In this document: one piece after another, positions 8,685-25,570 of the stretch
Numbering within the stretch: position 1 is the first letter of the stretch
How the letters are laid out: the number at the start of each line of letters is the position of its first letter
From: a virus
Lineage: Duplodnaviria; Caudoviricetes
DNA length: 25,571 bases
Virus record (IMG/VR): IMGVR_UViG_3300037634_005756
Location: 1-25,571 of that record
Direction: 5' to 3' (one strand)
The notes under the pieces: model-generated
Database searches by the model: none
Told to the model about the DNA's origin: nothing
Seen by the model: only the letters and a program-made list of their open reading frames with translations
Translations under genes and position numbers: made by a program

Positions 8685-8829
8685 CTATAAACCTCTGTAA
8701 TTTTATTTCTATTTCCATTTTTTTTCTGTAAGATGTTTTTCCACCTCCTGTATATCTTCGGTAAGTCTTACCTTGATATTTATAATCTTCCCAATGCATA
8801 TCGGGAAATAATTCTAATTGTTTACTCAT
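8659..8829 (-). CDS. Small hypothetical protein, 56 aa (not in ORF track)
   Basis: MSKQLELFPDMHWEDY...NKKTL; ATGA overlap with the upstream stop; fills the gap. Confidence 0.65.
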   Translation of the reverse strand: MSKQLELFPDMHWEDYKYQGKTYRRYTGGGKTSYRKKMEIEIKLQRFIDEYNKKTL

Positions 8830-9245: not shown

Positions 9246-9454
9246 GGTTTATCCTTCTTCTTATAATCTGTTTCATAAAATCCACTACCTTTGAATTGTG
9301 GTTTACCTGTTTCACCAAATACTCTCTTCATATCTACTATATGCCTGGGTACCATTTTACTACATTTTCCACAAGTAGGTGGTGAGTCATTCATACCTTG
9401 CAATACTTCTTTAATATCCTCACACTCTGGACATTTGAAAGTATAGAAAGGCAT
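9242..9454 (-). CDS. FmdB-family zinc ribbon protein
   Basis: MPFYTFKCPEC...CGKC...FKGSGFYETDY; start at TAATG 9454. Confidence 0.88.
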   Translation of the reverse strand: MPFYTFKCPECEDIKEVLQGMNDSPPTCGKCSKMVPRHIVDMKRVFGETGKPQFKGSGFYETDYKKKDKP

Positions 9455-9711
9455 TATACTGACTTTATATCTGCTTCTTGGAATTCTTTGTTGATGTGAC
9501 CACAAGACTCACAAGCAAACGCTGCTACTGGAACAATAGATTCTTGCCCAGTTGGTGAAATTATTGCCGAAAGTTTTTTCAACATTAAAGTCTGTTTAAA
9601 ACCTTTACACTTACACTTTTCACACTCAAGTGTTTTTGCATGTGTTAAATCTACATTGTCTAATGTTGGAGGTCCACCATCGCCACCGAAATTACCTTTA
9701 ATTACTGACAT
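9454..9711 (-). CDS. Hypothetical zinc-ribbon protein
   Basis: CEKC ... CESCGH. Confidence 0.7.
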   Translation of the reverse strand: MSVIKGNFGGDGGPPTLDNVDLTHAKTLECEKCKCKGFKQTLMLKKLSAIISPTGQESIVPVAAFACESCGHINKEFQEADIKSV

Positions 9712-10171
9712 TTATAAATCCCCTTGATTTTAATAATTCTTCTGTTACTTGGGATGTACCATCACCCTCAATTCCTTCTAAAAACATATCAAATATAAGA
9801 ATAGAATCTGGTGGTATCTTACTACCAGCTCCACGAGTACCGTATCCCAGGGATGATGGTATAATTACAGTTCTTTCTTCACCAATCATCCATGGAACTC
9901 TACTAAAAGATTCATCCCATCCTTTTATTACTCTACCTTCTTTAAGTTTAAATTTAAATGCAGCTCTGCCAGCTGAGCTATCAAAAATTGTACCATCTTC
10001 TAAATATCCAGTATAATGAACACTTACATTTGCTCCAGATGTTGGATATATAGCCACGCCATTTCCACCATTATTAGGGTCGGCTACTTTATTAATAATC
10101 ATACTCAAACCGTCTCCATATTCATAAATTTTATATTTATCACCATCATTATTATCTATTTTAAATTTCAT
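9698..10171 (-). CDS. FKBP-type peptidyl-prolyl isomerase
   Basis: VSVHYTGYLEDGTIFDSS, VIKGWDE, LGYGTRG, IPPDSILIFD; ATG 10171 with GGAGA. Confidence 0.92.
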   Translation of the reverse strand: MKFKIDNNDGDKYKIYEYGDGLSMIINKVADPNNGGNGVAIYPTSGANVSVHYTGYLEDGTIFDSSAGRAAFKFKLKEGRVIKGWDESFSRVPWMIGEERTVIIPSSLGYGTRGAGSKIPPDSILIFDMFLEGIEGDGTSQVTEELLKSRGFINVSN

Positions 10172-10334
10172 TAATATCTCCCTCAAAATGCTCAGGAATC
10201 TCCGTTATTTTTACATCTTTTTCTTTCCAACCTGTCTTATATAAAATATTTTCATTTTCAAAAGGTGGATTATGTAATGTAACTTTAATCGGTGGTTTCC
10301 TATAATCGTTATGTTCTACTTTAAATCTTTTCAT
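10161..10334 (-). CDS. Small hypothetical protein, 57 aa (not in ORF track)
   Basis: MKRFKVEHNDYRKPP...DINEI; ATGA overlap with the clamp loader stop. Confidence 0.65.
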   Translation of the reverse strand: MKRFKVEHNDYRKPPIKVTLHNPPFENENILYKTGWKEKDVKITEIPEHFEGDINEI

Positions 10335-11239
10335 TTAAGTATCCTTTTTAATTTTATTATTGTTGACATAAAGTTGATTTCCTTATCAACTACATTTACA
10401 TCTTGATATTGTCCTTCAGCAATTGCAAGTATACATTCTGCTTCATGACCATTACTATAAGTTTCTACCTCATCATATAATAATTTATATAATTCAGAAT
10501 AATCACTTATAGAATTATCAGCAATTAATTGTCTCATATCATTTAGTTTAGAATCACCTGAAAGTTTATCTAATAACTGAATTTTATAATCATTCTGAAT
10601 TACTGAACTTATATCAATTTTTAATTTACTATTTACAACTTGTCTTTGAGCTGAATTAATAACTCTACGAATGTCGGGATAACCAGCATTGACTATAAGA
10701 GCTATATCATCTAGTTTAAATTCAATACCTTCTTCTTCAAGTACATTCTTTAAATGTAAAGCTACCTCTTTTCTTGAAGGTGGTATGACTTTAAATGATT
10801 GACATCTTGATTGAATTGGGTCTATGATTCTCTCTACATAATTACAAGTCAATATAAATCTTGTATGTTTTGAGAATGTTTCCATTAGGTTTCTTAATGC
10901 GGCTTGAGCATTCGGTGTAAGAAAGTCAGCCTCATCGAGTATTATAACCTTTAAGGATTTGAAACCAACAGAAGAAGCAAAATTCTTTATCTTCGTTCTG
11001 ACATTGTCAACATTGTTTTCATCACTAGCATTAATATATAAATAGTCACAATCAATATTATTAGTAATAATCTTAGCTAATGTTGTTTTACCAGTACCGG
11101 CTTTTCCATAAAGTAATAAGTGAGGCACATCTTCACTTTCAAGATATATCCTCACCTTACTTTTAAGATGCTCATTACCGATGTAAGTTGATAAATCCTT
11201 TGGTCTATACTTTTCTACCCACAAACTATGTTCCATCAC
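10331..11239 (-). CDS. Clamp loader AAA+ subunit (gp44/RFC small subunit-like)
   Basis: WVEKYRP, Walker A GKAGTGKT, Walker B ILDEAD, SRC motif. Confidence 0.95.
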   Translation of the reverse strand: MMEHSLWVEKYRPKDLSTYIGNEHLKSKVRIYLESEDVPHLLLYGKAGTGKTTLAKIITNNIDCDYLYINASDENNVDNVRTKIKNFASSVGFKSLKVIILDEADFLTPNAQAALRNLMETFSKHTRFILTCNYVERIIDPIQSRCQSFKVIPPSRKEVALHLKNVLEEEGIEFKLDDIALIVNAGYPDIRRVINSAQRQVVNSKLKIDISSVIQNDYKIQLLDKLSGDSKLNDMRQLIADNSISDYSELYKLLYDEVETYSNGHEAECILAIAEGQYQDVNVVDKEINFMSTIIKLKRILK

Positions 11240-11423
11240 CCCTCCAATTATCTGGCTTACCTGCTAAAAACCAACAGATATAATTCCATATTATACTCTG
11301 AAAAGTGACTCCATTACATGATATTATATTTTTTCTTTTAAATTTCATTGAACCTTTATCGATAGAAATATCTATGTCTTTTTGCTCTTCGTACCAATCA
11401 TCCATATCATGTTCATATCCCAT
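11226..11423 (-). CDS. Hypothetical protein
   Basis: Short ORF; start moved to TAATG at 11423. Confidence 0.55.
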   Translation of the reverse strand: MGYEHDMDDWYEEQKDIDISIDKGSMKFKRKNIISCNGVTFQSIIWNYICWFLAGKPDNWRGDGT

Positions 11424-11605
11424 TAATCCATCCACCTACCGTGTTTAAATAAATGCGATAATCGGTGTGTAAATACTTCCCACATCAAACCCCATATAGA
11501 ATCTGCCTCATATGTACCTTCAGGTACCGTATAAACTATTTTATGTTTAGGTTTAACACTATCTAACCATATTTGTTGATGTTTGTCGGAATATCTATCA
11601 CCCAT
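11423..11605 (-). CDS. Hypothetical protein
   Basis: 60 aa, TAATG-coupled to the clamp gene. Confidence 0.6.
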   Translation of the reverse strand: MGDRYSDKHQQIWLDSVKPKHKIVYTVPEGTYEADSIWGLMWEVFTHRLSHLFKHGRWMD

Positions 11606-12324
11606 TAATCAATACCTTGAGTCGCTACAATGTAATATGTTGAATCATAATCATCAACCTTAAAATTAATTCTAGCTAATCCAGCATTTGAAACTTCAAG
11701 TGTAGCAGATGTACATTCTTTGTTAGCAGATAATACATCTCTAAATAAATTAGCATTAAATGAAACATTATTTGTTAATCCATTAGATGTAGTTTCTACA
11801 GGGATATTTACTCTGTTAGTGTTAGTAGAAGCATACCCAATTACTATCTGAGGACCTTCACTATTATTTACAATAGTAAATGTTTCAGTTTCAGACAGTG
11901 CAGATTTACCTTTTATGAAAGAATCAATAAAACTTGAATCAATTTTTATTTGAGTTTCAAAATCAGGTAATCTTTTTAGTTTTGGAGGGTCAGGAATAAC
12001 TGAAAGGTCTGAAAGTGTGTAATCAATAGAAACTACACCATTCTTTACTTTCAAAGTAACTGCTTTGTCACCAAATCTTGACACATCCATTGTTACATCT
12101 TCACCTAATACACTAAGTAATTTTACTAATTGGTCTGTTGTATAAACGCCAACATCACCTTCACTCAGCTGTAAATTATCAACCTTAACACTTCCCATCA
12201 ATGATTTATCAGAAGTTACAAATGATGTAGATAGCGAATTATCTTTAGCAGACCATTTTACACTATTTACATTCCCATTTAAATTATACTTCTGTATAAA
12301 CCTATTCAACTTTGTTTTTTGCAT
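11605..12324 (-). CDS. DNA polymerase sliding clamp (gp45/PCNA-like)
   Basis: 239 aa two-domain alpha/beta pattern, VGVY...LVKLLS, C-terminal STYYIVA; strong AGGAGA RBS; upstream of the clamp loader. Confidence 0.78.
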   Translation of the reverse strand: MQKTKLNRFIQKYNLNGNVNSVKWSAKDNSLSTSFVTSDKSLMGSVKVDNLQLSEGDVGVYTTDQLVKLLSVLGEDVTMDVSRFGDKAVTLKVKNGVVSIDYTLSDLSVIPDPPKLKRLPDFETQIKIDSSFIDSFIKGKSALSETETFTIVNNSEGPQIVIGYASTNTNRVNIPVETTSNGLTNNVSFNANLFRDVLSANKECTSATLEVSNAGLARINFKVDDYDSTYYIVATQGID

Positions 12325-12353
12325 TTTATTCTCCTATAAAATTCTATTGTTTT

Positions 12354-12383
12354 AATATACGGCCAAATTACCATATAAGTCAA
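12354..12383 (-). promoter_or_regulatory. Sigma70-type promoter for the clamp/clamp-loader operon
   Basis: TTGACT-18 nt-TATATT in one of the few intergenic gaps. Confidence 0.65.
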
Positions 12384-12400
12384 GCTTTATTTTAATTATT

Positions 12401-13414
12401 TTATCCCCAAAATTCACTTGATTTCTCTCTTGTTTTTTTCTCTATTATTGTGGGTTTTAATCTCTTTTGTGAAATATTTTCGTAATCATCATTCAATTCA
12501 ATACCAACCCAATTTTTGTCTTGTTTCATCGCTACTTCAGCTGTTGTACCAGAGCCAAAGAATGGGTCTAATACAGTTCCACCAACTGGACAACCAGCAT
12601 CTATCGGTGATTCAATTAATTCTGGTGGATATACAGCAAAATGAGCTCCTTCAAATTTTGCAGTACTATAACTCCACACAGTTCTTTTATTTCTTTTTGA
12701 TGAATCATTTACTTCTTCTATCTGTTGTTTAAAATAATATTTCTTTTTCTTTGTGAAGAAAAACATCTTCTCAAAATCTACTGTGTATCTATCAGTTGCA
12801 GGTGAAGGTAAACAACTTGGTTTATGCCAAATGATTTCGTTTCTCAATATCCAACCTCTGTTAGTCATCTCTATCGCAAACCTACTTGGTATTTGTACTA
12901 AACATTTTTGTGGTAAATCACATTTAACCTTTGGTATCATAGCCCCCTTAACATTTTTATTCTGCATATTACCAGTACCTTTACCATAACCAGTATTAGC
13001 ATATGTATCGCCGAGATTCACCCAACAAGTACCTTCAGGTTTCAACACTCTCTGAATCTCGTCAAATATATCACATAGATGGTCAACAAACATTTCAGGT
13101 GTAGGTTCTAATCCCAATTCACCTTTCCAAGCACCACATTTATTACACATAGCATCTTCAACTTCCCAATCTACTATACTAGCATTTAAATGATGAGGTA
13201 ATCCACCTTCAGAATTTGTTCCACTATGTAATTTTCGTTTAGATGTTTCAAACTCATGGTCACATTTATCATCACCACCCCAAATCTGCCCTTCCGTTCC
13301 ATAGTCTCGGAGTCCCCAATATGGCGGAGATGTCAAACACATATCCAAAGAATCATCGGGGAATGTTTTTAATACATCAAGACAATTTCCTTTATAAACT
13401 TTATTTACTTCCAA
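12401..13414 (-). CDS. Beta-class N4-C/N6-A DNA methyltransferase with Cys/His insert
   Basis: TSPPYWGLRDY, HFAVYP, LDPFFGSGTT; probable TTG start at 13414 after AGGAGAG. Confidence 0.92.
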   Translation of the reverse strand: MEVNKVYKGNCLDVLKTFPDDSLDMCLTSPPYWGLRDYGTEGQIWGGDDKCDHEFETSKRKLHSGTNSEGGLPHHLNASIVDWEVEDAMCNKCGAWKGELGLEPTPEMFVDHLCDIFDEIQRVLKPEGTCWVNLGDTYANTGYGKGTGNMQNKNVKGAMIPKVKCDLPQKCLVQIPSRFAIEMTNRGWILRNEIIWHKPSCLPSPATDRYTVDFEKMFFFTKKKKYYFKQQIEEVNDSSKRNKRTVWSYSTAKFEGAHFAVYPPELIESPIDAGCPVGGTVLDPFFGSGTTAEVAMKQDKNWVGIELNDDYENISQKRLKPTIIEKKTREKSSEFWG

Positions 13415-14205
13415 AACTCTCCTGCCTTTTCCATTGTCAGTTTTTTTGACCATATTTTGTCTACCCTCTTATTAGCAATATCAAAATATTTTTCACTAAT
13501 TTCAAAACCTACATATTGTCTGTCTAAATTGATACAAGCTACTGCCGTTGTACCACTACCCATAAACGGGTCTAATACTAAATCATTTTTATATGTCATA
13601 AACTTAATAGCTTTATTTGGAATATCCAAGCTAAAGTTTGCATCTGTTAGTCCTCTTGTTTCTGCGAAATATTTCCATCTTCCAGATACAAATTCTATAA
13701 ACTCTTTTTTACTTTCTTCACTACCATCATAATAACTCTCACCCCTTTCAAGTTTCTTCCATTGGTCTTTATAACCTAATAAAATACACTCTTTTGGATT
13801 GTGCATATATGGAGCAGAAGCTGATAACCAACTACCCCAAGCTGACAATTTAGTTTGTGGAGCTTTTTCCCTCAAATCTACAAGACCTGCAAATCCATAA
13901 CCTATCTCTTTCATTATTTTATGATACTCTGCCTGAATAAGAACTCTGTTATGTCCACCTAATTTTTTCATATTCACTTCATAAGGAATGTTGACTCCAA
14001 TTCTACCATCTGGTTTTAGAACTCTATAAACTTCTGTCAACCATTCTTTAGCAAATCCTAAGTAATCAACTATCTGTAGATTGTCATCCCAATCATCATA
14101 TTCTATACCAACATTATATGGTGGGGATGTTATACATAAGTCAACTGAATTTTCTTCAAGTTGTTTTAGTCCTTCTATACATTCTTCATTTATTATTTTA
14201 TTCAT
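13405..14205 (-). CDS. Beta-class N4-C/N6-A DNA methyltransferase
   Basis: TSPPYNVG, LDPFMGSGTT; start at TAATG 14205. Confidence 0.92.
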   Translation of the reverse strand: MNKIINEECIEGLKQLEENSVDLCITSPPYNVGIEYDDWDDNLQIVDYLGFAKEWLTEVYRVLKPDGRIGVNIPYEVNMKKLGGHNRVLIQAEYHKIMKEIGYGFAGLVDLREKAPQTKLSAWGSWLSASAPYMHNPKECILLGYKDQWKKLERGESYYDGSEESKKEFIEFVSGRWKYFAETRGLTDANFSLDIPNKAIKFMTYKNDLVLDPFMGSGTTAVACINLDRQYVGFEISEKYFDIANKRVDKIWSKKLTMEKAGEFWK

Positions 14206-14393
14206 TACCAATGCCTTATTACATTTGCTATGATAAATAAACAAGTAGTAACTTGTAGTATCACCCAAAATGTTTTTAATATTAATACTCTACGAGCTTG
14301 TTTTAATGACACAATAGGTATACCAGGCATATCATCATCAGTTTTACCCATATAGTGTCCAAGTGCTCGAGCCCATATCTTTGAGAATATCAT
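14205..14393 (-). CDS. Small hypothetical membrane protein
   Basis: 62 aa with a hydrophobic C-terminal segment. Confidence 0.6.
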   Translation of the reverse strand: MIFSKIWARALGHYMGKTDDDMPGIPIVSLKQARRVLILKTFWVILQVTTCLFIIANVIRHW

Positions 14394-16922
14394 TTAAAAA
14401 AACCTCTCTAATGTATTTTCTTTATCTATCAATGTCCATTCCATTGAATCATAAAACATATCTATTTTCTTCTGTAAACCCTTCTTGAATAACTTATCGT
14501 GGTCTACATACTGATTTATATAATCCATAATCTCTTGTGGGTCATCATAACCTTTGAAAGCAATCTGTGCAATACTCAATGGATTTTGTTTTAAATACAC
14601 CCACTTAATCTTTTCACTATTCTTAATCTTTTCAACATTTTCCAATCCATAATGTTTTAACAAATCATTGTAAACCCACGCCGCTTTTACATGAACTGGT
14701 GTGCCTTTATGCATAGGTGTAAATACACCTTTCTTACCATAAACTCCACCAACCCTTCTTTTATCTGCGAACTTACCTAAATTCTTAACACCGGTCGGAA
14801 GAGATATATCATCAAGTGGTAATGTTTTCATACTTTTCTTGAAAGTACAAATCATATCATCCAACTCATCTTTATCTCTATTTGATAGAATACCCTGTAG
14901 TACCTCCGTCATCAGTTTTCTATAAGCAGGTGGGAAACTACTTCTTACAATATCTAATCCCTTAACATCAAGTTTATCACATTTCACTCCACTGTCATTT
15001 ATAATCCATTGTCCATATCTCTTCTTGGTAACCCAAAAGGCTGACCTTGCAATCAACTCCTGTTTGATATCAAATCTGTGCTCATCACAATTTAAGAATA
15101 TCTTTGCAAACTTGTCATAAGTTTGATTCAAAAATCCTTGTACACCATCTGCAACCTCTAATATCTTTTCGGTCATAAACTCTTCATCTTCTACATCGGC
15201 TTCTGGATATCTACTTTTCACTAATGGTAATGCTGGATAGAAAACTGAATCTGTATCTGTGTAAATACAATAATCTTTATCCTCACCCAACTCTTTATTG
15301 TAATAATAGTTTCCCATTTTCTCCGTAAACTTTATCAACTCCACACCAGTTGTGGTAGTTGCCTCCGCATTGTCTACATCATAGAATCTAAATACTGGTA
15401 ATCCCAATACCCCGTACAATGAATTAAGAATAATTTTCTGTACTAATTGTCGTTTACCAAAGTATTCATACTGCTCTTTGTTTCCCTCATCCCCATATTT
15501 CTTCATCAACTTCTTATACTCAACTCTTTCATCAAACCATTTATTTAGAATTGAGGGAATCAAACCTTTTTTATCATTACGATACATAACACCATTTGAA
15601 GAAATAGCTATTTTATTATTATCCATTATCTTTCTTAACTGGTCGCTATTTAATACATCAGTTTCCTTTCTATCCCTCTTGTGAAATGTATATGATTTCT
15701 CTACACCTTTTGCAAACTCTTGTGCATTCCAACCTTCTAATCTACCTATCTTCATTTCAGGTGATATATTCAATGTCATAATTATAGAAGGATACATTGA
15801 AGTCAAATCTAAATCATACACCCAATCGTGTCTACCAGGTATGGGGTCTTTTACCCAAGCCCCACTAAACTTCTCCTCACTATTCATCTTCTGTCTTGCA
15901 TTGAAATCTTTATTTGGTGCAACTACACCAAGTTTTTTCATATAAACAAGAATAGCACCTTCCAAATATCTACTACTGAAGAATACATCTTCATAAGGAA
16001 CATGTCCTACATGTGATACGGTTCGTGCTAACTCCATAAACTTCAACTTGTCATCAAGTGCTTTCACAATAACAACATCATTCAAGTTATACTCAATAAA
16101 CTTATTTATATCATCTCTATACAAATCATCAAGAGTACCATCATATTCTATCTTACCCATATTGACTTCATCAGTACCAATTGCATCTAAACGATATGAT
16201 GATTTCTGTGTGTAGTTGTACAATTTATAAAGTGGAAGGTAATCCATACAGGATACACCGGCAATCTTGAATTTCTTTTTATTCTCATTATAATAAACAA
16301 CACCGATAGGTGAAAGTACATTCGCAATTTGATGACCCATAACTCTAACAGTTCTGTTGTATATATAAGGTATATCAAATCCATCAATATTCCAACCAGT
16401 AATTATAGTTGGTTGTATTTCCATATACTTCTGATAAAACCTTTGGAGTAATTCTTCTTCTGTCCTGAAGGATTCTACGAATGTATTATCCTTTTGATAA
16501 TTCTTTACATTACCCAAAATGAAACAAGTATATTGGTCAGCAACCTTATCATAGATTGCAATCGCAGTTATCTTATTACGAGCTTCTCTTGGGTCTGGAA
16601 ATCCACCTTTTATTTCAACCTCTATATCGATTATCATCTCACGATGACCTACTGAAACATCATCAGATTCTCCGTATTTGTCAACAAGAATACGAGTTTC
16701 CAATGGTACATCAGATTCAAACATTTTACCAGATTGTAAATCTTCAGCAGTCCAAAAATTTACCTTTTTCAACTTATCACCATAAATTGAACGATAAATA
16801 CCTGAACCTGATTTTTTATAAGCATAATGTTTGTAATTGAATTTTGAATAACCAGCTTGGTCATCCCACAAGTGTACTTCTACATTACCTTTATTTCTTT
16901 TGAGATATATGTTTTGATACAT
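14394..16922 (-). CDS. polB: Family B DNA polymerase (gp43-like)
   Basis: Exo DIE, GWNIDGFD, YNLND; polymerase DLTSMYPS, KIILNSLYG, YTDTDS, KKRY; C-terminal TLERFF. Confidence 0.97.
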   Translation of the reverse strand: MYQNIYLKRNKGNVEVHLWDDQAGYSKFNYKHYAYKKSGSGIYRSIYGDKLKKVNFWTAEDLQSGKMFESDVPLETRILVDKYGESDDVSVGHREMIIDIEVEIKGGFPDPREARNKITAIAIYDKVADQYTCFILGNVKNYQKDNTFVESFRTEEELLQRFYQKYMEIQPTIITGWNIDGFDIPYIYNRTVRVMGHQIANVLSPIGVVYYNENKKKFKIAGVSCMDYLPLYKLYNYTQKSSYRLDAIGTDEVNMGKIEYDGTLDDLYRDDINKFIEYNLNDVVIVKALDDKLKFMELARTVSHVGHVPYEDVFFSSRYLEGAILVYMKKLGVVAPNKDFNARQKMNSEEKFSGAWVKDPIPGRHDWVYDLDLTSMYPSIIMTLNISPEMKIGRLEGWNAQEFAKGVEKSYTFHKRDRKETDVLNSDQLRKIMDNNKIAISSNGVMYRNDKKGLIPSILNKWFDERVEYKKLMKKYGDEGNKEQYEYFGKRQLVQKIILNSLYGVLGLPVFRFYDVDNAEATTTTGVELIKFTEKMGNYYYNKELGEDKDYCIYTDTDSVFYPALPLVKSRYPEADVEDEEFMTEKILEVADGVQGFLNQTYDKFAKIFLNCDEHRFDIKQELIARSAFWVTKKRYGQWIINDSGVKCDKLDVKGLDIVRSSFPPAYRKLMTEVLQGILSNRDKDELDDMICTFKKSMKTLPLDDISLPTGVKNLGKFADKRRVGGVYGKKGVFTPMHKGTPVHVKAAWVYNDLLKHYGLENVEKIKNSEKIKWVYLKQNPLSIAQIAFKGYDDPQEIMDYINQYVDHDKLFKKGLQKKIDMFYDSMEWTLIDKENTLERFF

Positions 16923-16927
16923 ATATT

Positions 16928-16955
16928 AATATACAACCTTTTTAATTAAAATCAA
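16928..16955 (-). promoter_or_regulatory. Putative sigma70-type promoter of polB, probably giving a leaderless mRNA
   Basis: TTGATT-16 nt-TATATT, 5 nt before the ATG; resembles the clamp promoter (AAAGCTT...GTATATTAA). Confidence 0.5.
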
Positions 16956-16963
16956 AGCTTTTT

Positions 16964-17332
16964 TTAATTATCTTTGCTCATCCACCCATGTCCTTTTGGT
17001 AAACCATATTTGTTTACTCTGACATAGACTATTTTATCTATTGTTAATACAACTTTATCCGCATGTAAACTTCTTACTTCACAGGATAAGGTACAAGATG
17101 TTTTACCTATCTCTAATGTCTGCATTCCTATTTCAATGACATCACCGAGTATAACAGGAAACTTAAAATCAATTTCTGACATCATCTTTGTAACGATTAA
17201 TCCTGTATTTAATTCCAATCCGGCATGGATACCACCTTCTTCGTCAATCCATTTAAGTAACTGACCTCCGTGTAAGTAACCTCTCGGATTTAAATCTTCA
17301 TGTGTAACTAATTTTCTTGTTAAGAACTTCAC
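16964..17332 (-). CDS. Hotdog-fold acyl-CoA thioesterase
   Basis: DLNPRGYLHGGQLLKWIDEEG, IDFKFPV, GKTS; GTG start. Confidence 0.88.
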   Translation of the reverse strand: MKFLTRKLVTHEDLNPRGYLHGGQLLKWIDEEGGIHAGLELNTGLIVTKMMSEIDFKFPVILGDVIEIGMQTLEIGKTSCTLSCEVRSLHADKVVLTIDKIVYVRVNKYGLPKGHGWMSKDN

Positions 17333-17719
17333 TTAACTCCCAAATACTTTTTTCTTTTCTCCGTGATATTCGTAAGCGTGACCATTTTCTTTCAGTAATT
17401 CATTTACTGATTTCTCTTCACCCTTTATGAATAACTCACCTAATACTCTACCATATTTACCGACACCATAGGATATGATTGAGAATTTACCCTCATCAGA
17501 ATTTTCCAATAAATCTTTTACATAAGCTTTAGCGGCTAATCCTTTTTTCTTTTCTTCGAGGTTACGAGTCCTTGATTCCCAGGTGTCCACGCCATAAAAT
17601 CTAATTCTCTTTTTGACGAAAGTATTAAAACCCAAATCAATAAGAGCATCACAAGTGTCACCATCGACAACTCTATCCAATTTACAACTATAACCATATT
17701 TTTTAACTTGTTTTCCCAT
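17333..17719 (-). CDS. Thermonuclease (SNase-like) family protein
   Basis: RVVDGDT, RFYGVDTWE, KYGRVLG. Confidence 0.88.
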   Translation of the reverse strand: MGKQVKKYGYSCKLDRVVDGDTCDALIDLGFNTFVKKRIRFYGVDTWESRTRNLEEKKKGLAAKAYVKDLLENSDEGKFSIISYGVGKYGRVLGELFIKGEEKSVNELLKENGHAYEYHGEKKKVFGS

Positions 17720-17720
17720 T

Positions 17721-17840
17721 TCATTTCTCCTGTTTAAATCTATTATCTATCCAACATTTTCCAAAATACATCACACCTAACCAAATAGATATTTCTATTA
17801 CTTCAATGTATCCAAGACTATTTAATATACCTACATCCAT
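17721..17840 (-). CDS. 39 aa hydrophobic peptide (not in ORF track)
   Basis: MDVGILNSLGYIEVIEISIWLGVMYFGKCW...; AGGAGA RBS; fills the gap. Confidence 0.6.
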   Translation of the reverse strand: MDVGILNSLGYIEVIEISIWLGVMYFGKCWIDNRFKQEK

Positions 17841-18442
17841 TTTTTTTCTCCTAAGTATGTTGCTACTAAATGTATTCTATTCTCCTCACCACCATTGAAT
17901 ACAGTGTGATAATTTCTTGTATCAGTAAACCATACTCCACCATCAGCTGGTAAATGTTTTAATTTATCATCAATTACTAAATGAGCTCCAGGATTTGTGA
18001 ATACAGGAATATGTAATCTTGGTTCAGGGTCTCTATGCCAACTCAATGATGTACGAGGTTCTAACAATAACAATCTCACTCTACCTAATTTATATTGTTT
18101 TGATAACTCATTATAAACTTCTTCAAAATATGTTCCTTTGAAATCTTCAACAAATTCTGTATAATGGGATTCATCGACTACATTTTCTCTTTGAACTTCT
18201 TTTCCAGTTGAATCTGGTTTAGTCCAAAACACTCCTCGTAACTTATCACCATCAGCTGATGATGGGTCACCAGGAATTTGTGTCATACATAGTCCTTTTA
18301 CTATATGTGATTTCCAAGACATTTTGGTAAAGAGTTCGTTTGTTGCTGATTGTAACTTTTCTATATCAAATGATGTTGGTAATTTAACAAAATTATCTTT
18401 CTTCATCATTCCATCTCCCATATTTAAAAATATTGGTTTCAT
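17831..18442 (-). CDS. 2OG-Fe(II) oxygenase, Asp/Asn beta-hydroxylase-like
   Basis: HRD (HxD), RLHIP, distal HTVFNGG..RIHLV. Confidence 0.82.
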   Translation of the reverse strand: MKPIFLNMGDGMMKKDNFVKLPTSFDIEKLQSATNELFTKMSWKSHIVKGLCMTQIPGDPSSADGDKLRGVFWTKPDSTGKEVQRENVVDESHYTEFVEDFKGTYFEEVYNELSKQYKLGRVRLLLLEPRTSLSWHRDPEPRLHIPVFTNPGAHLVIDDKLKHLPADGGVWFTDTRNYHTVFNGGEENRIHLVATYLGEKKWM

Positions 18443-19572
18443 TTAGAAAAATTAATTGACTTATTCAATTCACCTAATCTTCTATCAACTTCTAGTTCAG
18501 GAAAGTGTTCTCTTAACCAATCTACCGATTCTCCAAATGTTGTTACGAGTATTTCACTAACTAACATTATTACATCAAGTATATTTACAATACCATCTTG
18601 ATTAACATCTGCAGTTAAGAATTGTTCTTCTGTTGGTGGTGTTGTATTTAATACAAATCCAACCATTAAAACTATATCTGTCACATCTAATTCACCATCA
18701 AAATTAACATCACCATATAATTCTACTTCAAAATCATCTTCAGGTTCACCTATATAACCAAAAAACCATGGTAATCTTGAATGTATCTTCGAGTACACGC
18801 CCGGGTACCCTGCATCCGCTCAACCATAGCCCCAACTGACAATACCAATTAGTTCATACTCACCTTCATCATTTGTCATAATAAGTGGACCACCACTATC
18901 TCCTTGACAGGAATCTTCACCACCATTTGAGTCACCAGCACATATCATATTGTTTGTTGTTTCATTTCCTATGTTACCACAACTATCGTCAATAGGAACA
19001 TCAACTTCAAGTAATACATTAGAACTACCACCACCAGATGATGTAGCTCCCCAACCCATTGTTGTTGACATTACTGGTTCTTCATCATGTGAATCATCTG
19101 TAACTAATTGTATTGGTTCAAAACTTGATGGTGATGATAAATGTAATAGAGCATAATCATTATCTAATGACCAACCACTATATTGTGGATGAACTATAAT
19201 TTGGTCAACACTTCTTGTTTCTGAACCTGTTGTATTATTTACATTATGTAATCCAATCTTAACATCTACACTACTTGGTGAACTACCCTCTACACAATGA
19301 GCAGCTGTTATAACCCAATCTTCCCTAACCAACGAACCACCACAAAAGTGACCTCCACCCCATCCACCTCGAAGTGATACCATAAATGGATACTTACAAT
19401 TTGGACAAGCTGGGTCTACTTCCTCACCACCTACAATCATAGGTTGTGGTAAATCACCAGGATTAATTGTCGGTGCTTCGGCCGACATTGTTGTTAAATT
19501 ATCTTCTTGCACTGGATTTGTATTATCAGTACAAGAAAATAAAAGCAATAATATAAATAATAATCTAATCAT
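18439..19572 (-). CDS. Lipoprotein trypsin-like (S1A) serine protease with C-terminal dockerin; in-frame TGA at 18820-18822, probable selenocysteine; 377 aa
   Basis: Lipobox LFSC, IVGG, TAAHC, DYALL, DSCQGDSGGP, GIVSWGYG*ADAGYPGVYSKI in one frame, then GDVNFDG/ADVNQDG repeats. Confidence 0.88.
18779..18819 (-). promoter_or_regulatory. Putative bacterial-type SECIS hairpin
   Basis: GGGUAC (18810-18805) pairs with GUACUC (18796-18791); GGGC apical loop starts +18 from the UGA; lower GGAUG/CAUUC helix possible; folded by eye. Confidence 0.65.
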
Positions 19573-20050
19573 TCTTCTTCTCCCCAAGACTATCCTTAAA
19601 CCATTCTTTAGCCCAAGATGGATTCTGTTTTATTGTTTGTTCTGTAATTAAATCTTTTAATTTTGTAGTAGACCATCCATGAGAACGAGTTGTATAAATA
19701 ATTTTTGGTGGTAAGTCATCGCCTGTAAATGATTCTTTACCTATATAATCTTCACCTAATATTCTGACATCAGGTTTCCAAAACTTTATCAATTCATATA
19801 ACTCTTCTTCAGTTTGATATGTGTAAACATCATCGACATATCTAATAGACATTAAAGCTTTGTATCTATCATAAACTGGTATAACTGGTTTATATTTACT
19901 TTTTCTATGTAGTGATGGGTCTATTTGTAAAAATACAATAAATCTATCACAATGTCTTCTAGCTTCTTTAAAACAATTTATATAACCTGGGTGCAGTAAG
20001 TCAAAATTACCAGCCGTAAACCCAAGTAGTTCTTTTTTATATTCCTTCAT
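19565..20050 (-). CDS. Cytidylyltransferase-family protein (TagD-like)
   Basis: AGNFDLLHPGY, LGEDY, RSHGWSTT. Confidence 0.85.
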   Translation of the reverse strand: MKEYKKELLGFTAGNFDLLHPGYINCFKEARRHCDRFIVFLQIDPSLHRKSKYKPVIPVYDRYKALMSIRYVDDVYTYQTEEELYELIKFWKPDVRILGEDYIGKESFTGDDLPPKIIYTTRSHGWSTTKLKDLITEQTIKQNPSWAKEWFKDSLGEKKND

Positions 20051-20051
20051 T

Positions 20052-20255
20052 CTATTTTACCTCAAAATTTTCTCTTAGTGTTCTTAAATTTTCTTCTGCT
20101 TGGGATAAACTATCTGTCCATTTTTTTACTTCTGATAGTAAATCCGTATGCTCTCCAATACCAACTGCATCATTGAATAATATATCCAAATGAGCTAATG
20201 CTGCTGTTTTTTGTGCTTGATATGAATCAATAGCCGCCATTATTAATTTATTCAT
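20052..20255 (-). CDS. Hypothetical helical protein
   Basis: 67 aa, TAATG-coupled to nrdJ, VGIGEH turn. Confidence 0.7.
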   Translation of the reverse strand: MNKLIMAAIDSYQAQKTAALAHLDILFNDAVGIGEHTDLLSEVKKWTDSLSQAEENLRTLRENFEVK

Positions 20256-22270
20256 TATACATTCTCCAATTCTTTCTTTTCTTTTAATGCTTCAAAATCA
20301 ATCTCACATGTGTCATTATTACAAAACTTTTCAACTTCAGCTTCTGCACCTTTTACTTGTCTGAATGATAAGAATGATAATTCATCAACCATTTTCTTAT
20401 ATTTCTTTTCAGTAATTTCTTCATAAGGCATTTGTTTGTATGCACCCAATTCCAACTTAGGTAAGAATGAAATACCTTTCAATTGATATTGGAAATAGTT
20501 AAGTGCTGTAGCTATTTGTTTACCTTCTGTTTCTGGGTCGAATGTTACCGTACAAGAAACTTGATTATCAGCCCAATATCGTTGCATAAATGCAGCTAAT
20601 GCCATCTGTTCCCACATCGGAACTTCACTTACTGTTCTGATTCCATCACCCATATCTACAGGTACTTCAACTACAACAGTAGAATCTTCACTACCGAAAG
20701 CAGGTTCTATTTTATATCCAGCTTTTTCTAAAGGTTTGATTAATGGACTCAAACTAGATAATCTAATTCTTCTGATATAAAATCTACTCTCTGGATAATG
20801 TAAACCTGGTGTTGAACCAGCCAACAATGATACAGTTCCACTTGGTTTAACTGATGTAGTTTTTATACTACGAGGAACTGCAAACCAATCTGAATAGTTC
20901 TTATCATATCTTTGTAGAGCATCATATCCGTCTTCTAACCATTTTCTTAACTCACCTTGTCCTCTATGAGTAATGAATTGTGCGATACCACTTACTGAAC
21001 AACCTATTCTTCTGTTTCTTAACATTACACGATTGGTTTCTGGCCAATGTGTTTTTCCAAGTGTTACCGTTTTTGCATAAAGATATGCATATTTTAAAGT
21101 TGTTATATAATCTTCCAATGAATCGTGATTATCTGGAAATGTTTCTACCAAACAACATAACTCATATGATTCTAATGATTGTTCAAGACAAGGATTACCA
21201 CCTGCAACTCTGTGGTCTTTATCATCTCCACCATTCTTCATTCTTGAGTAGTGTCTCATATTATCTAACCAAGCTAAACCAGGTTCACCATTGTCTGTAA
21301 TTCTTTCTGCTATATCTGTATAATCCATACCTAACTCAGCAAATACTGAATTGTTAGATGTCCAACCATATTGTTCTCTATGTGGATTTTTCTTATAATT
21401 TTTTAGATTGATATATTCTTCTGAATGTGGGTCACCAAATACTATTTCAGCAGTTCGTCTAACATTACCAGCAACAACACACTTACCAATCAGATTCATT
21501 ATATCTACGATTGTAGTTACTGATATTGGTTCACCTATGTTTTTATCAAGACATTCTGAAACAGATCTGTGCACCTCTTCTAAAGGTTTATAACCACTTG
21601 ATACACCGCCAAATCCTTTGATTGGCGCACCTTCTTCTCTAATTCTTTTATAATCAAAATCAACAGGAGTTATACCAAGAAAATATGAATCAAGTAATCG
21701 TCTTACTGATTCTACCCAACCTTCTCTTGTATCAGGTATAACATATGTTTCCGCTTCTCTGTCATCTTTTGGACCTCTTACTACGAATTGTTCTGCACCT
21801 TTTGTATCAAATCCTACACCAACTCCAACCATTGAAGCATCCATTAAGAATGTAAATGGTTTAGATAAATCTTCTTTAAGATTATTCGTTGATACGAATG
21901 CGCAATTGTTTAGGGCGGCATACAAACCTCGTTCTTCTGTAATTGGAGTTCCCATTGCCCAGAGTCCTCGGCCGGGCGGCAAGAATTTCATATTGAAAAT
22001 ACGGTCATACATCTCTTGTGCTGACCTTTGTGCTTGCCACGCGTTCCACCCTAAATGATGGGATTCTATCCACTTCTTCTGCATGTTGTAAGTACCTTCA
22101 ACTACTCGTTGTACGGTTTCCCACCACATTTCATTTTTCCCATCATCTTTAATTCTTGAGTAAGTTCTCATATACACGAGTTCACCGAGTCCATTAAATC
22201 CAAATGGTGCTCTTTTTCGTTTATACCCATCGATAAAATTTTCAGACAAACGAAATTCTTTATATTCCAT
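20255..22270 (-). CDS. nrdJ: Class II adenosylcobalamin-dependent ribonucleotide reductase (monomeric RTPR type)
   Basis: RTYSR, FLPPGRGLW, NNCAF, NPCLEQ, TSVKPSGTVS, C-terminal CNNDTC; AAGGAGAG RBS; no NrdB gene adjacent. Confidence 0.93.
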   Translation of the reverse strand: MEYKEFRLSENFIDGYKRKRAPFGFNGLGELVYMRTYSRIKDDGKNEMWWETVQRVVEGTYNMQKKWIESHHLGWNAWQAQRSAQEMYDRIFNMKFLPPGRGLWAMGTPITEERGLYAALNNCAFVSTNNLKEDLSKPFTFLMDASMVGVGVGFDTKGAEQFVVRGPKDDREAETYVIPDTREGWVESVRRLLDSYFLGITPVDFDYKRIREEGAPIKGFGGVSSGYKPLEEVHRSVSECLDKNIGEPISVTTIVDIMNLIGKCVVAGNVRRTAEIVFGDPHSEEYINLKNYKKNPHREQYGWTSNNSVFAELGMDYTDIAERITDNGEPGLAWLDNMRHYSRMKNGGDDKDHRVAGGNPCLEQSLESYELCCLVETFPDNHDSLEDYITTLKYAYLYAKTVTLGKTHWPETNRVMLRNRRIGCSVSGIAQFITHRGQGELRKWLEDGYDALQRYDKNYSDWFAVPRSIKTTSVKPSGTVSLLAGSTPGLHYPESRFYIRRIRLSSLSPLIKPLEKAGYKIEPAFGSEDSTVVVEVPVDMGDGIRTVSEVPMWEQMALAAFMQRYWADNQVSCTVTFDPETEGKQIATALNYFQYQLKGISFLPKLELGAYKQMPYEEITEKKYKKMVDELSFLSFRQVKGAEAEVEKFCNNDTCEIDFEALKEKKELENV

Positions 22271-22290
22271 CTATTTACTCTCCTTGAAAT

Positions 22291-22318
22291 TTGTGATATA
22301 TATCAACCTTTTTGATTA
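22291..22318 (-). promoter_or_regulatory. Palindromic operator-like site plus motif shared with the polB upstream region
   Basis: Perfect palindrome TGATATATATCA 22294-22305; TAATCAAAAAGGTTG 22318-22304. Confidence 0.4.
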
Positions 22319-22356
22319 GACACATATAAATATTATTTATTCTTGTTTTCGTCTAC

Positions 22357-22476
22357 TTAATCTTCGTTGTGATGCCAATGAATATCAACTTTTTCACCAT
22401 CAACACAAGATGTAGTAGTTGTCGTCCAGTAACCTTCTGGTACTTCTATCATTGTTGGATATTTTATTTCTTCCAT
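22357..22476 (-). CDS. 39 aa hypothetical peptide (not in ORF track)
   Basis: MEEIKYPTMIEVPEGYWTTTTTSC...; TAATG-coupled start. Confidence 0.55.
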   Translation of the reverse strand: MEEIKYPTMIEVPEGYWTTTTTSCVDGEKVDIHWHHNED

Positions 22477-22769
22477 TATTTTTTCCTCTTTTTCTTTGGT
22501 GCTTTACCACCAACATAAGCTTCATTATAATCTTTAGTAGATTTATCATCAGCTAAAAACTTACCTTTTTTACCTCTAGCTCTTTTTGGTTTTTCTTTCA
22601 TCATACCATCATAAGGAATCTTTCCCATTTTTACAGTTGGTTTTTTTTCTTCTTTTTCATCAACTCTGAAATCGTCAAAATTAAATATTGTATTAAGTAA
22701 AGCATCTCTACTTTCTCTTAATATAGTTCTACAAGCTTCACCTATTGTCATTTCTTTTTTCTTACCCAT
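22476..22769 (-). CDS. Lysine-rich hypothetical protein
   Basis: GGAGA RBS; KRARGKKGKFLADD...NEAY basic C-terminal motif. Confidence 0.7.
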   Translation of the reverse strand: MGKKKEMTIGEACRTILRESRDALLNTIFNFDDFRVDEKEEKKPTVKMGKIPYDGMMKEKPKRARGKKGKFLADDKSTKDYNEAYVGGKAPKKKRKK

Positions 22770-22771
22770 AA

Positions 22772-23551
22772 TTATCTCCTAATCTGGTTTACATTTTTAC
22801 TATTATATTCTACTACATCAAGATGAAATTCAGGTTCTTTTCCCATTACTTCATATTTTCCCTTACCTTTCATCTCCTTCCATTGTAAATCTTTATCTTT
22901 TGGATACTCTTTTGTCCAACTTACAGATGAATCTGCTAATTTCTTATTTGCTTTTCGATTCAACGGTAATATATATCTAAATTGCTTTCCTTTAATTCTT
23001 TTTATACCTTTCAGTTTCATATAATCATAAGTAAGCCAAAACACCTTATCCTTACCTATCATTTTTGCATTTTCCTCACATAACTTTCGAGATGTTCTAG
23101 GATGTATTTTTTCTCCTTTTTTACTCATATAAATATCTGTCCATATATAACCGCCATATAAAAAATTAAAGCTCTGATAAACATATCCAGCTTTACCAAC
23201 TATTCCATCAGCCCAAGTAAATAAAAATAATCTTTCAGGAGTATTTTTTTTCATCCATTTTACTACTTTAGATAACATTTGTGATTCTGAATTTTTTGGC
23301 ATTTCATCCAACATACACATCTTTCCAATCTCATAATAATCCATTGTTCCTAAACCTGGAAATAATTTATTTATTGTGCCCTTCGGTTGTGTGCCCCATC
23401 CTAGAGTTAATACACCAACTAATTTTGATTCCAAAAAACAACCTAAAAAATGTTTTGTTAATCTCGGCATTACTTTAGAATAATGAGTGCTCTGAATCAT
23501 CTCTACTGCTTCTAATTTATCAATTTCTTTTATTTCAAAATTATATTTCAT
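22772..23551 (-). CDS. Mom-like (GNAT-fold) DNA base modification protein
   Basis: HYS, LVGVLTLG, EIGKMC...KNSESQMLS, TWAD...GYVYQSFNFLYGG; start at TAATG 23551. Confidence 0.78.
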   Translation of the reverse strand: MKYNFEIKEIDKLEAVEMIQSTHYSKVMPRLTKHFLGCFLESKLVGVLTLGWGTQPKGTINKLFPGLGTMDYYEIGKMCMLDEMPKNSESQMLSKVVKWMKKNTPERLFLFTWADGIVGKAGYVYQSFNFLYGGYIWTDIYMSKKGEKIHPRTSRKLCEENAKMIGKDKVFWLTYDYMKLKGIKRIKGKQFRYILPLNRKANKKLADSSVSWTKEYPKDKDLQWKEMKGKGKYEVMGKEPEFHLDVVEYNSKNVNQIRR

Positions 23552-24405
23552 TATCCCCAAAACTCATTTTTATGTTTTGTAAATAATGGATTTATCAATT
23601 CATTAACATAAGTATCATTTATTTCAAATCCAATATAGTTTCTATTCAAACTATTTGCTACATTACCTGTGGTACCACCACCCATAAAAGGGTCTAGTAC
23701 TGTATCACCTTTATCAGTTAACCATTTAATAAAAAATTCTGGTAATTGTGGGTGAAATGGTGCAGGATGTTTTGCTCCCTTTAATACACCGGCGTTATCA
23801 AATCTAAAAACCCCTGAAGGTTTTGAACCTAATGGATTTATACCCATCATTTTAGATTCACCAAATTCTGCAATACCAGACGATATAGCTTTCTTCTGAC
23901 CTTTAACAGGAGCTTTAGCTCTAACTATACTACTTTCAGCATAAGGAACTCTAACAACATCTATATTAGATTTAAAATTTTTAGTATCTCTAACAAAATG
24001 AAAAATATATTCCATTCTGTCATTCAATCTAACCTCACCCCCCATAGGCAATCCATTCTTTTTATGCCAAATATATCTATCATATAATTTCAATCCAGAT
24101 TCTTTAACTATCTTAACTACTGTTTCTAATACATAAATTGCTCTTTCACCATTTACAATTTTATCATTTATATTTAAAATAAAAGAACCAGTTGGTTTCA
24201 AAAATCTATTTGCCTCTTTAAATAAAGGTAATATCCAATCTGAATAATTTTCGGGTGAAAATACATTAACTTCCTCACCATAAGAAACTGTATCTGCATA
24301 TGGTGGAGAAGTCACAACTAAATCCACATAATTATCTGGAACTGTTTTTGACAATTCCATACAATCACCTATATGTATTTTATTCAGTTCAAAACTATTC
24401 GCCAT
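23551..24405 (-). CDS. Beta-class N4-C/N6-A DNA methyltransferase
   Basis: TSPPYAD, HPAPF, LDPFMGGGTT; start ATG 24405 or 24408. Confidence 0.92.
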   Translation of the reverse strand: MANSFELNKIHIGDCMELSKTVPDNYVDLVVTSPPYADTVSYGEEVNVFSPENYSDWILPLFKEANRFLKPTGSFILNINDKIVNGERAIYVLETVVKIVKESGLKLYDRYIWHKKNGLPMGGEVRLNDRMEYIFHFVRDTKNFKSNIDVVRVPYAESSIVRAKAPVKGQKKAISSGIAEFGESKMMGINPLGSKPSGVFRFDNAGVLKGAKHPAPFHPQLPEFFIKWLTDKGDTVLDPFMGGGTTGNVANSLNRNYIGFEINDTYVNELINPLFTKHKNEFWG

Positions 24406-24910
24406 CATCAACCCTTTGAGGATTAAGCATATTATTCCTAAACATTTCAAGATTATATTGAATATTATTAATACTCTGATATAAATTATTTATTTCTTCA
24501 AATGCAATCTTATAAAATTCTCCAGCATTTCTATATTCCCACCATCTAGCACCATAATTTACAAAAATCTCTTCACCTTTTTGTATATCCTTAATTGCCT
24601 CAAATATAAACAAACTATTTTCGGCATCAGTATCCCAATCTGCATTTTGGTCTTCATCATTAGCATGATTATAGATACATCCATATCCAAGTGGCATAGC
24701 ATCACAAATATATGGTTCATCTCCATCTTTAGGAAATCTAAAGCAATAATTTTCTAAACCCTTGGCAGTCTGACTATTAAATGGAATGAAGTGACATTCC
24801 TCTAACATTTCACCTTTTTTAATTTTTGCATTAGCAAATATACCATACCCATTCGTAATCGGTGTTTTTCTTTTTTCTAATTTATTATTTACAAATAACT
24901 TATCTTTCAT
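24395..24910 (-). CDS. SET-domain protein-lysine methyltransferase
   Basis: GYGIFA..IKKGE, IYNH, IKDIQKGEEIFVNYG. Confidence 0.88.
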   Translation of the reverse strand: MKDKLFVNNKLEKRKTPITNGYGIFANAKIKKGEMLEECHFIPFNSQTAKGLENYCFRFPKDGDEPYICDAMPLGYGCIYNHANDEDQNADWDTDAENSLFIFEAIKDIQKGEEIFVNYGARWWEYRNAGEFYKIAFEEINNLYQSINNIQYNLEMFRNNMLNPQRVDDGE

Positions 24911-25570
24911 TTAATTTTCTCCCATTAAATCATCATATTTATTTGATAACATTTTTTTCATAACATTATCGCGATTATCTATTTTACTTTGTGTTTCTTT
25001 TCCATCCACAGTACTACTCTCATATATTTCTACTTGACCTGTATTTGTATTTACCTTTGCCGGATATGTCAAACCATCAGGTCCAAATCTGTTTTTGATT
25101 ACATGAAACCTACCAGTATTACCAATCTTATCTTCTACTTTTCTACTCAATGATACTACAAAATCTGCAGTCATTACTTTTTGATATGATTCAGCAACCT
25201 TTGTCGCTTCAATCACATCTTCGTCAAGAGCACTTCTGTTTGCTTGGGATGCAGTCCATATTGGAATTTCAAACTCACCAGCAAGTCCTCTTAAATCTTC
25301 GTATATGTTTCCAAGTGCGTGTCTTACTTCACGAGCATTACCAGTATCTCTTAATATATCCCCATAATCCACAACTACCATATCAAACTTTTTACCCATA
25401 GTTTTTAATTTCTGCATATGGGCTGAAAGTGTATGTACCGATGCAGTTTTAGTTGGAAAATATTTAACTACCAACTCACCTTCAACCTTTCCAACTGCAG
25501 ACTTTACATCATCTATGTAATACTTTAAATTTTGATTTGCTAATCCTGTTAATACAGAATCATATCTTAA
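24911..25570 (-). CDS. DnaB/gp41-like replicative helicase, C-terminal part (5' end outside window)
   Basis: VVVDYGD, WTASQANR, AES, KNRFGPDG; frame open to the window edge. Confidence 0.9.
   Translation of the reverse strand, partial: LRYDSVLTGLANQNLKYYIDDVKSAVGKVEGELVVKYFPTKTASVHTLSAHMQKLKTMGKKFDMVVVDYGDILRDTGNAREVRHALGNIYEDLRGLAGEFEIPIWTASQANRSALDEDVIEATKVAESYQKVMTADFVVSLSRKVEDKIGNTGRFHVIKNRFGPDGLTYPAKVNTNTGQVEIYESSTVDGKETQSKIDNRDNVMKKMLSNKYDDLMGEN

Follow-up and report, generated by a model that had tools for sequence, protein, structure and literature searches.

An in-frame UGA that very probably encodes selenocysteine in a trypsin-like protease gene on T4-like phage contigs

The UGA at positions 18820-18822 of the window, the whole 25,571-nucleotide stretch of viral DNA analysed here, is very probably a selenocysteine (Sec) codon. 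The gene around it, carried by a widespread group of uncultured marine phages, is most likely a single phage frame that, with this UGA read as Sec, would specify a predicted membrane-anchored trypsin-like selenoprotease. Site-specific recoding, as a sequence-only reading had proposed, is supported because relatives carry only TGA or TGY at this codon, a hairpin behind the UGA co-evolves with it, the downstream frame remains under purifying selection, and the probable host lineage has selB, selC and selD. The strongest sign of recoding was absent from that reading: a stretch of 70% G+C past the UGA that holds a conserved hairpin.

A protease frame with one internal UGA

The minus-strand frame runs from an ATG at 19572 to a TGA at 18439, and its sole internal stop is the TGA at 18820-18822; the terminator is a second TGA. 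Frame translation confirms that the 255-aa and 119-aa ORFs noticed earlier are one frame split by this single codon, across which the sequence reads GIVSWGYG*ADAGYPGVYSKI. The initiating ATG overlaps the stop of an upstream cytidylyltransferase-like gene, and the terminal TGA overlaps the ATG of the next gene (ATGA). That neighbour is an Asp/Asn beta-hydroxylase-like gene (17831-18442, minus strand), and its overlap with the protease stop occurs in the window and a few close relatives only.

Table 1. Coordinates of the features discussed, in the window and on the related IMG/VR contig G005
Feature	Position	Strand	Basis or remark
T4-like replication module	8826..25474	-	Pfam/PHROGs matches, synteny
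Protease gene	18439..19572	-	377 codons, UGA is codon 251
Predicted lipoprotein signal peptide, ending at Cys14 (LLLFSC)	19531..19572	-	by eye
Predicted propeptide or linker before IVGG	19438..19530	-	P44-x-I46-V-G-G invariant; alignment to trypsin N-terminus
S1A trypsin-like protease domain, residues 46-273	18754..19437	-	Pfam, alignment to trypsin, Foldseek
Family-specific C56-P-x-C59 insertion	19396..19407	-	invariant in TGA and Cys alleles
Cys222 (chymotrypsin Cys191), inferred partner of Sec251	18907..18909	-	trypsin alignment; pairing from the available text of PMC12844481
In-frame UGA at the Cys220 position, likely selenocysteine	18820..18822	-	alignment and codons of relatives
SECIS-like hairpin	18791..18810	-	comparative tests
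Dockerin type I-like domain, residues 286-341	18550..18717	-	Pfam Dockerin_1, E 1.6e-10
C-terminal helical tail, W/Y-L-x-x-x-F-P motif	18442..18537	-	predicted model and allele comparison
UGA thioredoxin	G005:C1:35091-35423 (L158:16091-16423)		own hairpin, loop about 22 nt behind UGA
Phage tRNA-Sec, UCA anticodon	G005:C1:103633-103723 (L155)		69.4 bits; A+T-rich
tRNA-Arg(UCU)	G005:C1:91967-92389 (L156)		directly followed by phage tmRNA

Against Pfam, the read-through protein matches Trypsin over residues 57-269 (E 1.4e-59) and, further downstream, Dockerin_1 (Table 1). Alignment with trypsin 1utj places codon 251 on the Cys of GVVSWGYGCA, which bears out the earlier assignment of the UGA to trypsin Cys220. 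The catalytic triad and Cys191, also said to be intact, are present as His92, Asp139, Ser226 and Cys222, together with Asp220 at the S1 position Asp189, a residue that predicts cleavage after Arg or Lys. The core cysteines of the trypsin domain fall at 77/93, 198/211 and 222/251, and Cys191-Cys220 is one of the three core disulfides of S1A proteases according to the available text of PMC12844481. Wherever alleles of the pooled set defined below cover these positions, the triad, Asp189 and every other cysteine are unchanged. An AlphaFold model (mean pLDDT 70) confirms the trypsin fold, with S1A proteases as the top Foldseek matches; pLDDT falls below 50 at residues 218-223 and 249-252, and the model leaves the geometry of the 222-251 pair unresolved.

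Beyond the catalytic core, the protein combines several features of its own. The lipid-anchor residue Cys14 is retained in 45 of 46 TGA alleles and in 20 of 20 phage Cys alleles among those covering residue 14 (pooled set). Just past the mature N-terminus, every allele carries the C-P-x-C insertion, unlike solved trypsins, and it could form an extra disulfide or a redox site. The C-terminal tail is absent in only three of 93 complete alleles of the pooled set, namely two cell-type alleles and L132, where it is shifted. Several Cys alleles (L014, L019, L024, L025) extend about 50 residues beyond the tail in a coiled-coil-like segment.

TGA otherwise acts as a stop in the window, in line with the earlier claim, because it ends four of the 30 ORFs of at least 100 aa (a count that includes the upstream half of the protease) and takes part in the ATGA overlap at the end of the gene itself. 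No other convincing UGA read-through gene emerged when the window was scanned. The TGA also holds at the level of the assembly: a 106-nt contig of run X1, possibly the source sample, covers it with zero differences, and no variant at 18820-18822 appears in contigs of four DNA runs among the 40 of 65 matches listed. One locus (L074) is 100% identical to the window and may come from the same sample. An assembly error as the origin of the TGA is ruled out by the X1 contig together with the TGA in 69 of 107 loci described next.

The codon 251 column and its hairpin

Relatives were collected with search patterns that excluded the codon 251 column. The pooled set comprises 111 rows: 29 IMG/VR loci, the best 80 of 184 metagenome matches, the window, and one full-length GTDB match, the other 43 GTDB loci being omitted as weak matches to the C-terminal part. 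Codon 251 can be read in 107 of the 111 rows and is TGA in 69, TGT in 34, TGC in four and nothing else, a tally that includes the best 80 of 184 metagenome matches. The proposed tabulation of TGA against TGY thus gives 69 against 38, and TGA is not confined to the window. The rows are partly redundant, and dereplication at 95% protein identity leaves 53 TGA and 29 TGY alleles. On a tree of 80 dereplicated alleles, built by a quick method with codon 251 and the next 11 residues masked, TGA and TGY interchange at least 11 times, seven of these switches being forced by starred branches; a short recombining cassette of TGA plus hairpin could have inflated the count of independent switches. Because Cys alleles arise so often, Sec is not required, and it is an optional upgrade rather than an essential residue.

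The frame downstream of the UGA is under purifying selection, as judged from codon comparisons. Every complete TGA allele in the pooled set (56 of 56) stays open for at least 115 codons past the UGA. Across 19 TGA pairs, dN/dS is 0.20 for residues 46-250, 0.17 for residues 252-275 and 0.28 for residues 263-377; the corresponding values for 11 Cys pairs are 0.16, 0.21 and 0.21. Relaxed selection marking a pseudogene, named beforehand as an outcome that would tell against recoding, is therefore not what the C-terminal values (0.28 for TGA, 0.21 for TGY) indicate. Over the linker and dockerin, TGA pairs (0.31) exceed Cys pairs (0.21). Two alleles deviate individually: L084, a TGA allele, has a second stop upstream, and L132 has the shifted tail already mentioned.

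The nucleotide sequence behind the UGA is unusual in composition. The 30 nt past it reach 70% G+C in a genome of about 32%, a level attained in only 12 of 25,542 such segments of the stretch. Third-position G+C in TGA alleles is 0.58 over codons 0-9 and 0.04-0.19 elsewhere, and in codons 0-9 of Cys alleles it is 0.13 (pooled set, dereplicated). Counting the U of the UGA as 1, the element spans positions 13-32, lies 11 nt behind the codon and pairs 14-31, 15-30, 16-29, 17-28 and 18-27; C20-G25 probably closes an R-G-G-H loop. Watson-Crick pairing at all four of 15-30, 16-29, 17-28 and 18-27 is found in 52 of 53 TGA alleles and in three of 29 TGY alleles (dereplicated pooled set), L150 being the one TGA allele with a broken stem. 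Under random synonymous codons, the same four-pair stem forms in a mean of 7.7 and a maximum of 17 of the 53.

Covariation points in the same direction. The G15-C30 pair becomes A-U in four alleles and C18-G27 becomes U-A in three, the 3' partners of both pairs having changed three separate times on the tree. These double changes (seven cells in two pairs) are matched in none of 500 shuffles for TGA alleles, and Cys alleles show none beyond chance (304 of 500 shuffles), kinship being ignored in both tests. In seven independent TGA/TGY pairs, the hairpin sides with TGA in 6.5 on average and never the reverse (median p 0.016). Three of the six pairs show no variation, being fixed by the Y-P-G-V-Y peptide. 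All 53 TGA alleles have a purine at position 21, where 18 of 29 Cys alleles have U. Immediately before the UGA (window position 18823, minus strand), the base is U in 53 of 53 TGA alleles and A in 15 of 29 Cys alleles; it is A in one of 23 Marinimicrobia selD genes, and the U may reflect avoidance of an AUGA start/stop overlap.

Energetically, the hairpin is weak, at -6.0 kcal/mol in the window and -3.8 on average. Single-sequence folding against shuffles gives no excess stability (z -0.16 to +0.98), and longer pieces fold otherwise. The bacterial SECIS model, in the available text of PMC13188914, places the apical loop 16-37 nt behind the UGA on an upper stem of 4-16 bp, at -7.5 kcal/mol or below. 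Here the loop lies 15-17 nt behind the UGA depending on the closing pair, on a stem of 5-6 bp with compensatory changes. The loop criterion holds in 53 of 53 TGA alleles if C20-G25 closes R-G-G-H and fails with an open 8-nt loop; the two forms are equal in energy, and C20-G25 is invariant. Over 42 nt including the UGA, 46 of 53 TGA and five of 29 TGY alleles reach -7.5 kcal/mol; the same cut without the UGA is reached by 14 of 53 and three of 29. The window itself gives -7.0 kcal/mol, and -10.4 with another fold. For comparison, 19 of 23 TGA alleles of Marinimicrobia selD (32 loci) have a loop beginning at position 20-21, and there too the peptide constrains the sequence.

Phage setting, selenocysteine machinery and probable host

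The protease lies within a replication module that encodes clamp loader subunits, a sliding clamp, DNA polymerase B, ribonucleotide reductase and a DnaB-like helicase. Four longer IMG/VR contigs are largely syntenic with the window, the protease standing between reductase and polymerase, and one of them, G005, carries a gp23 capsid gene (E 5e-76); the ORFs of the window fragment include no capsid gene. Homologs of window genes adjoin the protease in all 25 IMG/VR loci that cover codon 251. Among metagenome TGA loci with 1.5 kb of flank, drawn from the best 80 of 184 matches, such homologs lie nearby in 27 of 33; of the remaining six, five have neighbours common to these phages or the window, and the sixth is L153.

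Other genes in the window broaden this picture of the phage. By eye, a 717-aa MetE-like methionine synthase (6130-8684, minus strand) adjoins a QueF-like gene, and the same two follow the protease in L076. Three DNA methyltransferase-like ORFs, also recognized by eye, and a Mom-family gene occupy 12401-14268 and 22772-24450 on the minus strand. A small FmdB-like zinc-ribbon ORF (9242-9505, minus strand) has two CxxC motifs with all four Cys by eye; the FmdB family is also among the selenoproteins of the Global Ocean Sampling (GOS) reads.

L153 differs from the other TGA loci. Its neighbour is an ABC transporter that shares 61% identity with the one in Marinimicrobia MED589; the allele has neither the lipid-anchor Cys nor the tail, and sits basally on a branch that is long and hence unsure; it looks like a cellular, chromosomal allele. 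Ahead of the dockerin, its TGA allele (L153:2965-4494) contains an additional domain, and the hairpin is the same. In a pattern scan of 185,579 species genomes, the only full-length match was a Cys allele on the MED589 chromosome. Protease matches in Marinimicrobia number five in four of 251 genomes, all with Cys. The protease was found in none of 50,697 GenBank phage records and has no match in PHROGs. The phage context, described beforehand as the unusual part, is thus borne out in that most loci are T4-like phage contigs, but the Sec form is not exclusive to phages, and a phage-only family is rejected because of the chromosomal-looking L153. The simplest reading is that a Marinimicrobia host was the source from which the phage lineage acquired a Sec-type gene together with its hairpin.

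A second candidate selenoprotein accompanies the protease. Three related phage contigs (G005 and those of the homologs L256 and L257) encode a thioredoxin with W-UGA-G-P-C, TGA being present in three of three. The two contigs other than G005 carry TGA protease alleles too; the G005 protease has TGT. The phage thioredoxin is 45-52% like Marinimicrobia thioredoxins, none of which contains a stop.

Part of the Sec machinery is also found on a phage record. G005 has a tRNA-Sec that begins right behind the stop of a HAD-like gene, with a 10-base scaffold gap about 200 bases upstream, inside a gene. A tRNA-Sec scores above cut-off in one of 15 related records, all of them fragments 8-63% complete, and in one of 44 loci around the protease-neighbouring gene, which is G005 itself; the window has none. 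Two DNA-pattern scans for tRNA-Sec returned only G005 and G+C-rich contigs dissimilar to these phages, and neither selB nor selD was found in G005. With one occurrence in those 15 fragmentary records, tRNA-Sec is not a general trait of these phages, and most members probably rely on the host.

The host is probably a member of Marinimicrobia, to judge from tRNA identity. Over 75-76 bases, the G005 tRNA-Arg matches chromosomal tRNAs in four of 151 Marinimicrobia without a difference, and all four have selB, selC (tRNA-Sec) and a Sec-type (TGA) selD. In the phylum of a Cytophagales MAG, used as a control, it occurs in none of 251 genomes; a second control phylum comprised only two genomes. The assignment is held at this level because it draws on one control phylum and on one relative, G005, rather than the window. 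The tRNA-Arg of a closer window relative reaches at most 95% identity, in one of 251 genomes. The phage tRNA-Sec is not host evidence, because it is only 61-64% like Marinimicrobia tRNA-Sec and no closer to it than to others. One Marinimicrobia MAG includes a 3.7-kb phage-like contig with a clamp-loader match, possibly placed there by accidental binning. Across the phylum, selD is present in 145 of 201 Marinimicrobia. The proposal that the host supplies the machinery is in keeping with selB, selC and selD in the four tRNA-matched genomes.

Proposed mechanism, alternatives and known systems

In the proposed mechanism, host SelB with Sec-tRNA would bind the hairpin 11 nt behind the UGA, and Sec would be inserted at residue 251. 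The protease would then be exported and lipidated at Cys14, its propeptide would be cleaved before IVGG, and a Sec251-Cys222 Se-S bridge would replace the Cys191-Cys220 disulfide beside the S1 pocket. Where Sec is scarce, the ribosome would stop and leave a 250-aa fragment that misses the final strand, the helix and the dockerin and would likely be inactive; that such a stop cuts the protease fold had been recognized from the start. Because termination at the UGA leaves this fragment, protease output could follow selenium supply, and a selenium-dependent output is plausible. In mammalian S1A proteases, loss of the Cys191-Cys220 bond harms activity, and in tryptase its redox state alters specificity, according to the accessible part of bioRxiv 515718. 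A Se-S bridge could thus alter folding or redox behaviour.

As to role, the preferred possibility, put at somewhat under even chances, is an envelope protease of host origin that would release peptides or trim surface proteins to the benefit of the infected cell. It is favoured over receptor destruction, a less likely variant that leaves the recoding as it stands and has the protease cut the phage receptor or envelope proteins of host defence (superinfection exclusion) instead of providing nutrients. Two points favour this variant: phage alleles, unlike the two cell-type alleles, have a lipid-anchor Cys and a tail, and expression before lysis is probable from the position of the gene among replication genes. 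Against it, Marinimicrobia chromosomes carry related secreted trypsins.

Reading of the UGA by a near-cognate or suppressor tRNA (Cys or Trp), with the hairpin as a general read-through stimulator and no selenium involved, is improbable. It draws on the hairpin's only partial agreement with the bacterial SECIS energy rule. Against it, no TGG, TAA or TAG occurs at the column in 107 loci (including the best 80 of 184 metagenome matches), the distance of the hairpin loop from the UGA resembles that in Marinimicrobia selD (19 of 23 folds), and relatives carry a UxxC thioredoxin and a tRNA-Sec. Still less probable is a true stop in a split or decayed gene, yielding a truncated protease and a separate dockerin protein from GTG 18798. 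Standard gene calling does return the two ORFs, and downstream dN/dS is slightly higher in TGA alleles, but the stop would cut the protease fold, GTG 18798 lies inside both hairpin and domain, dN/dS over residues 252-275 is 0.17, TGA is the majority state and the sole stop codon at the column, and the synonymous hairpin bias is restricted to TGA alleles. TGA recoding exists in some A+T-rich genomes, but a phage or host code with every TGA translated as an amino acid (code 4 or 25) is next to negligible, since ordinary genes end in TGA with ATGA overlaps, the scan of the window gave no further convincing in-frame TGA, the alternative at the column is Cys rather than Trp or Gly, and TGA stops stand where homologs have TAG or TAA.

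With Sec as the preferred reading of the UGA, a broader picture can be sketched tentatively. An abundant lineage of marine T4-like Marinimicrobia phages may possess a small selenoproteome of its own, toggling repeatedly between Sec and Cys by host or water mass, with selenium at a structural disulfide as a switch through which protease output or specificity tracks selenium supply and redox state; an ocean family taken as bacterial would then be mostly viral. As part of that same tentative reading, the selenoproteome would consist of the surface protease and the thioredoxin, and at least one member would add a phage tRNA-Sec. Dependence of a phage gene on host SelB would bring Sec use to viruses of bacteria and tie phage infection to ocean selenium, and the family predicted in 2008 is reassigned here mainly to phages. 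About two thirds of these alleles will be split by standard gene callers. The many independent Sec/Cys allele pairs of this family, with what would be a rare natural Sec at a non-catalytic, structural disulfide, make the question of what Sec gains over Cys directly testable.

The family itself has a precedent. A trypsin-like selenoprotein family was predicted in 2008 by Zhang and Gladyshev from GOS reads (nine Sec reads and 128 Cys homologs), with a bacterial SECIS-like element drawn for one read (available text of PMC2398784), so the sequence-only reading was correct that Sec-type trypsins had been proposed from marine metagenomes. In its Dataset S2, all nine sequences, by eye, are COG5640/PF00089 proteases with U in the GIVSWGYG column, flanked as here, and they share the dockerin and the tail. 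The accessible text of that report mentions no phage or virus, whereas the alleles described here lie mainly on T4-like phage contigs, and the covarying hairpin, the repeated Sec/Cys switching and the likely host go beyond it. A 2022 review lists the trypsin-like family among prokaryotic selenoproteins without an accession (PMC9312934, available text), and term searches of that text and of a 2026 review (PMC13188914) found no mention of phage. Literature on phage and selenocysteine, within a search that most subscription journals lay outside, contains no report of a phage selenoprotein gene.

Compared with S1A proteases (PF00089), the protein shares the triad, Asp189, the IVGG start and the three core disulfide positions, and differs in the UGA at Cys220, the CxxC insertion, the lipoprotein signal, the dockerin and the tail. 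Like bacterial in-ORF SECIS elements, which SelB reads in place (PMC13188914, available text), the hairpin lies close behind the UGA, has its loop 17 nt past the codon if C20-G25 pairs, and has G in the first two loop positions. Unlike them, its stem is short and weak, the covarying hairpin alone misses -7.5 kcal/mol, and it lies on a phage gene. A tRNA-Sec was claimed in 2018 in Basilisk-like Bacillus phages from a tRNAscan prediction, with no selenoprotein gene named in the available text (PMC6145125); G005 has a tRNA-Sec and a UGA thioredoxin on one record.

Reviews of viral recoding and selenoproteins, in their accessible text, count only poxvirus cases as proven (PMC8310308, PMC6769590), the 2019 review naming the glutathione peroxidases of molluscum contagiosum virus and fowlpox virus as the only proven viral selenoproteins. 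The protease resembles those peroxidases, as described there, in being a virus gene with an in-frame UGA that would use host Sec machinery. The poxvirus cases differ in that they concern eukaryotic viruses, a eukaryotic SECIS and a catalytic Sec; here the carrier is a bacterial virus and the position that of a structural disulfide. Set against these systems, the family and the recoding mechanism are already known, and what is new is the viral carrier, the co-evolving hairpin, the repeated switching and the Marinimicrobia link.
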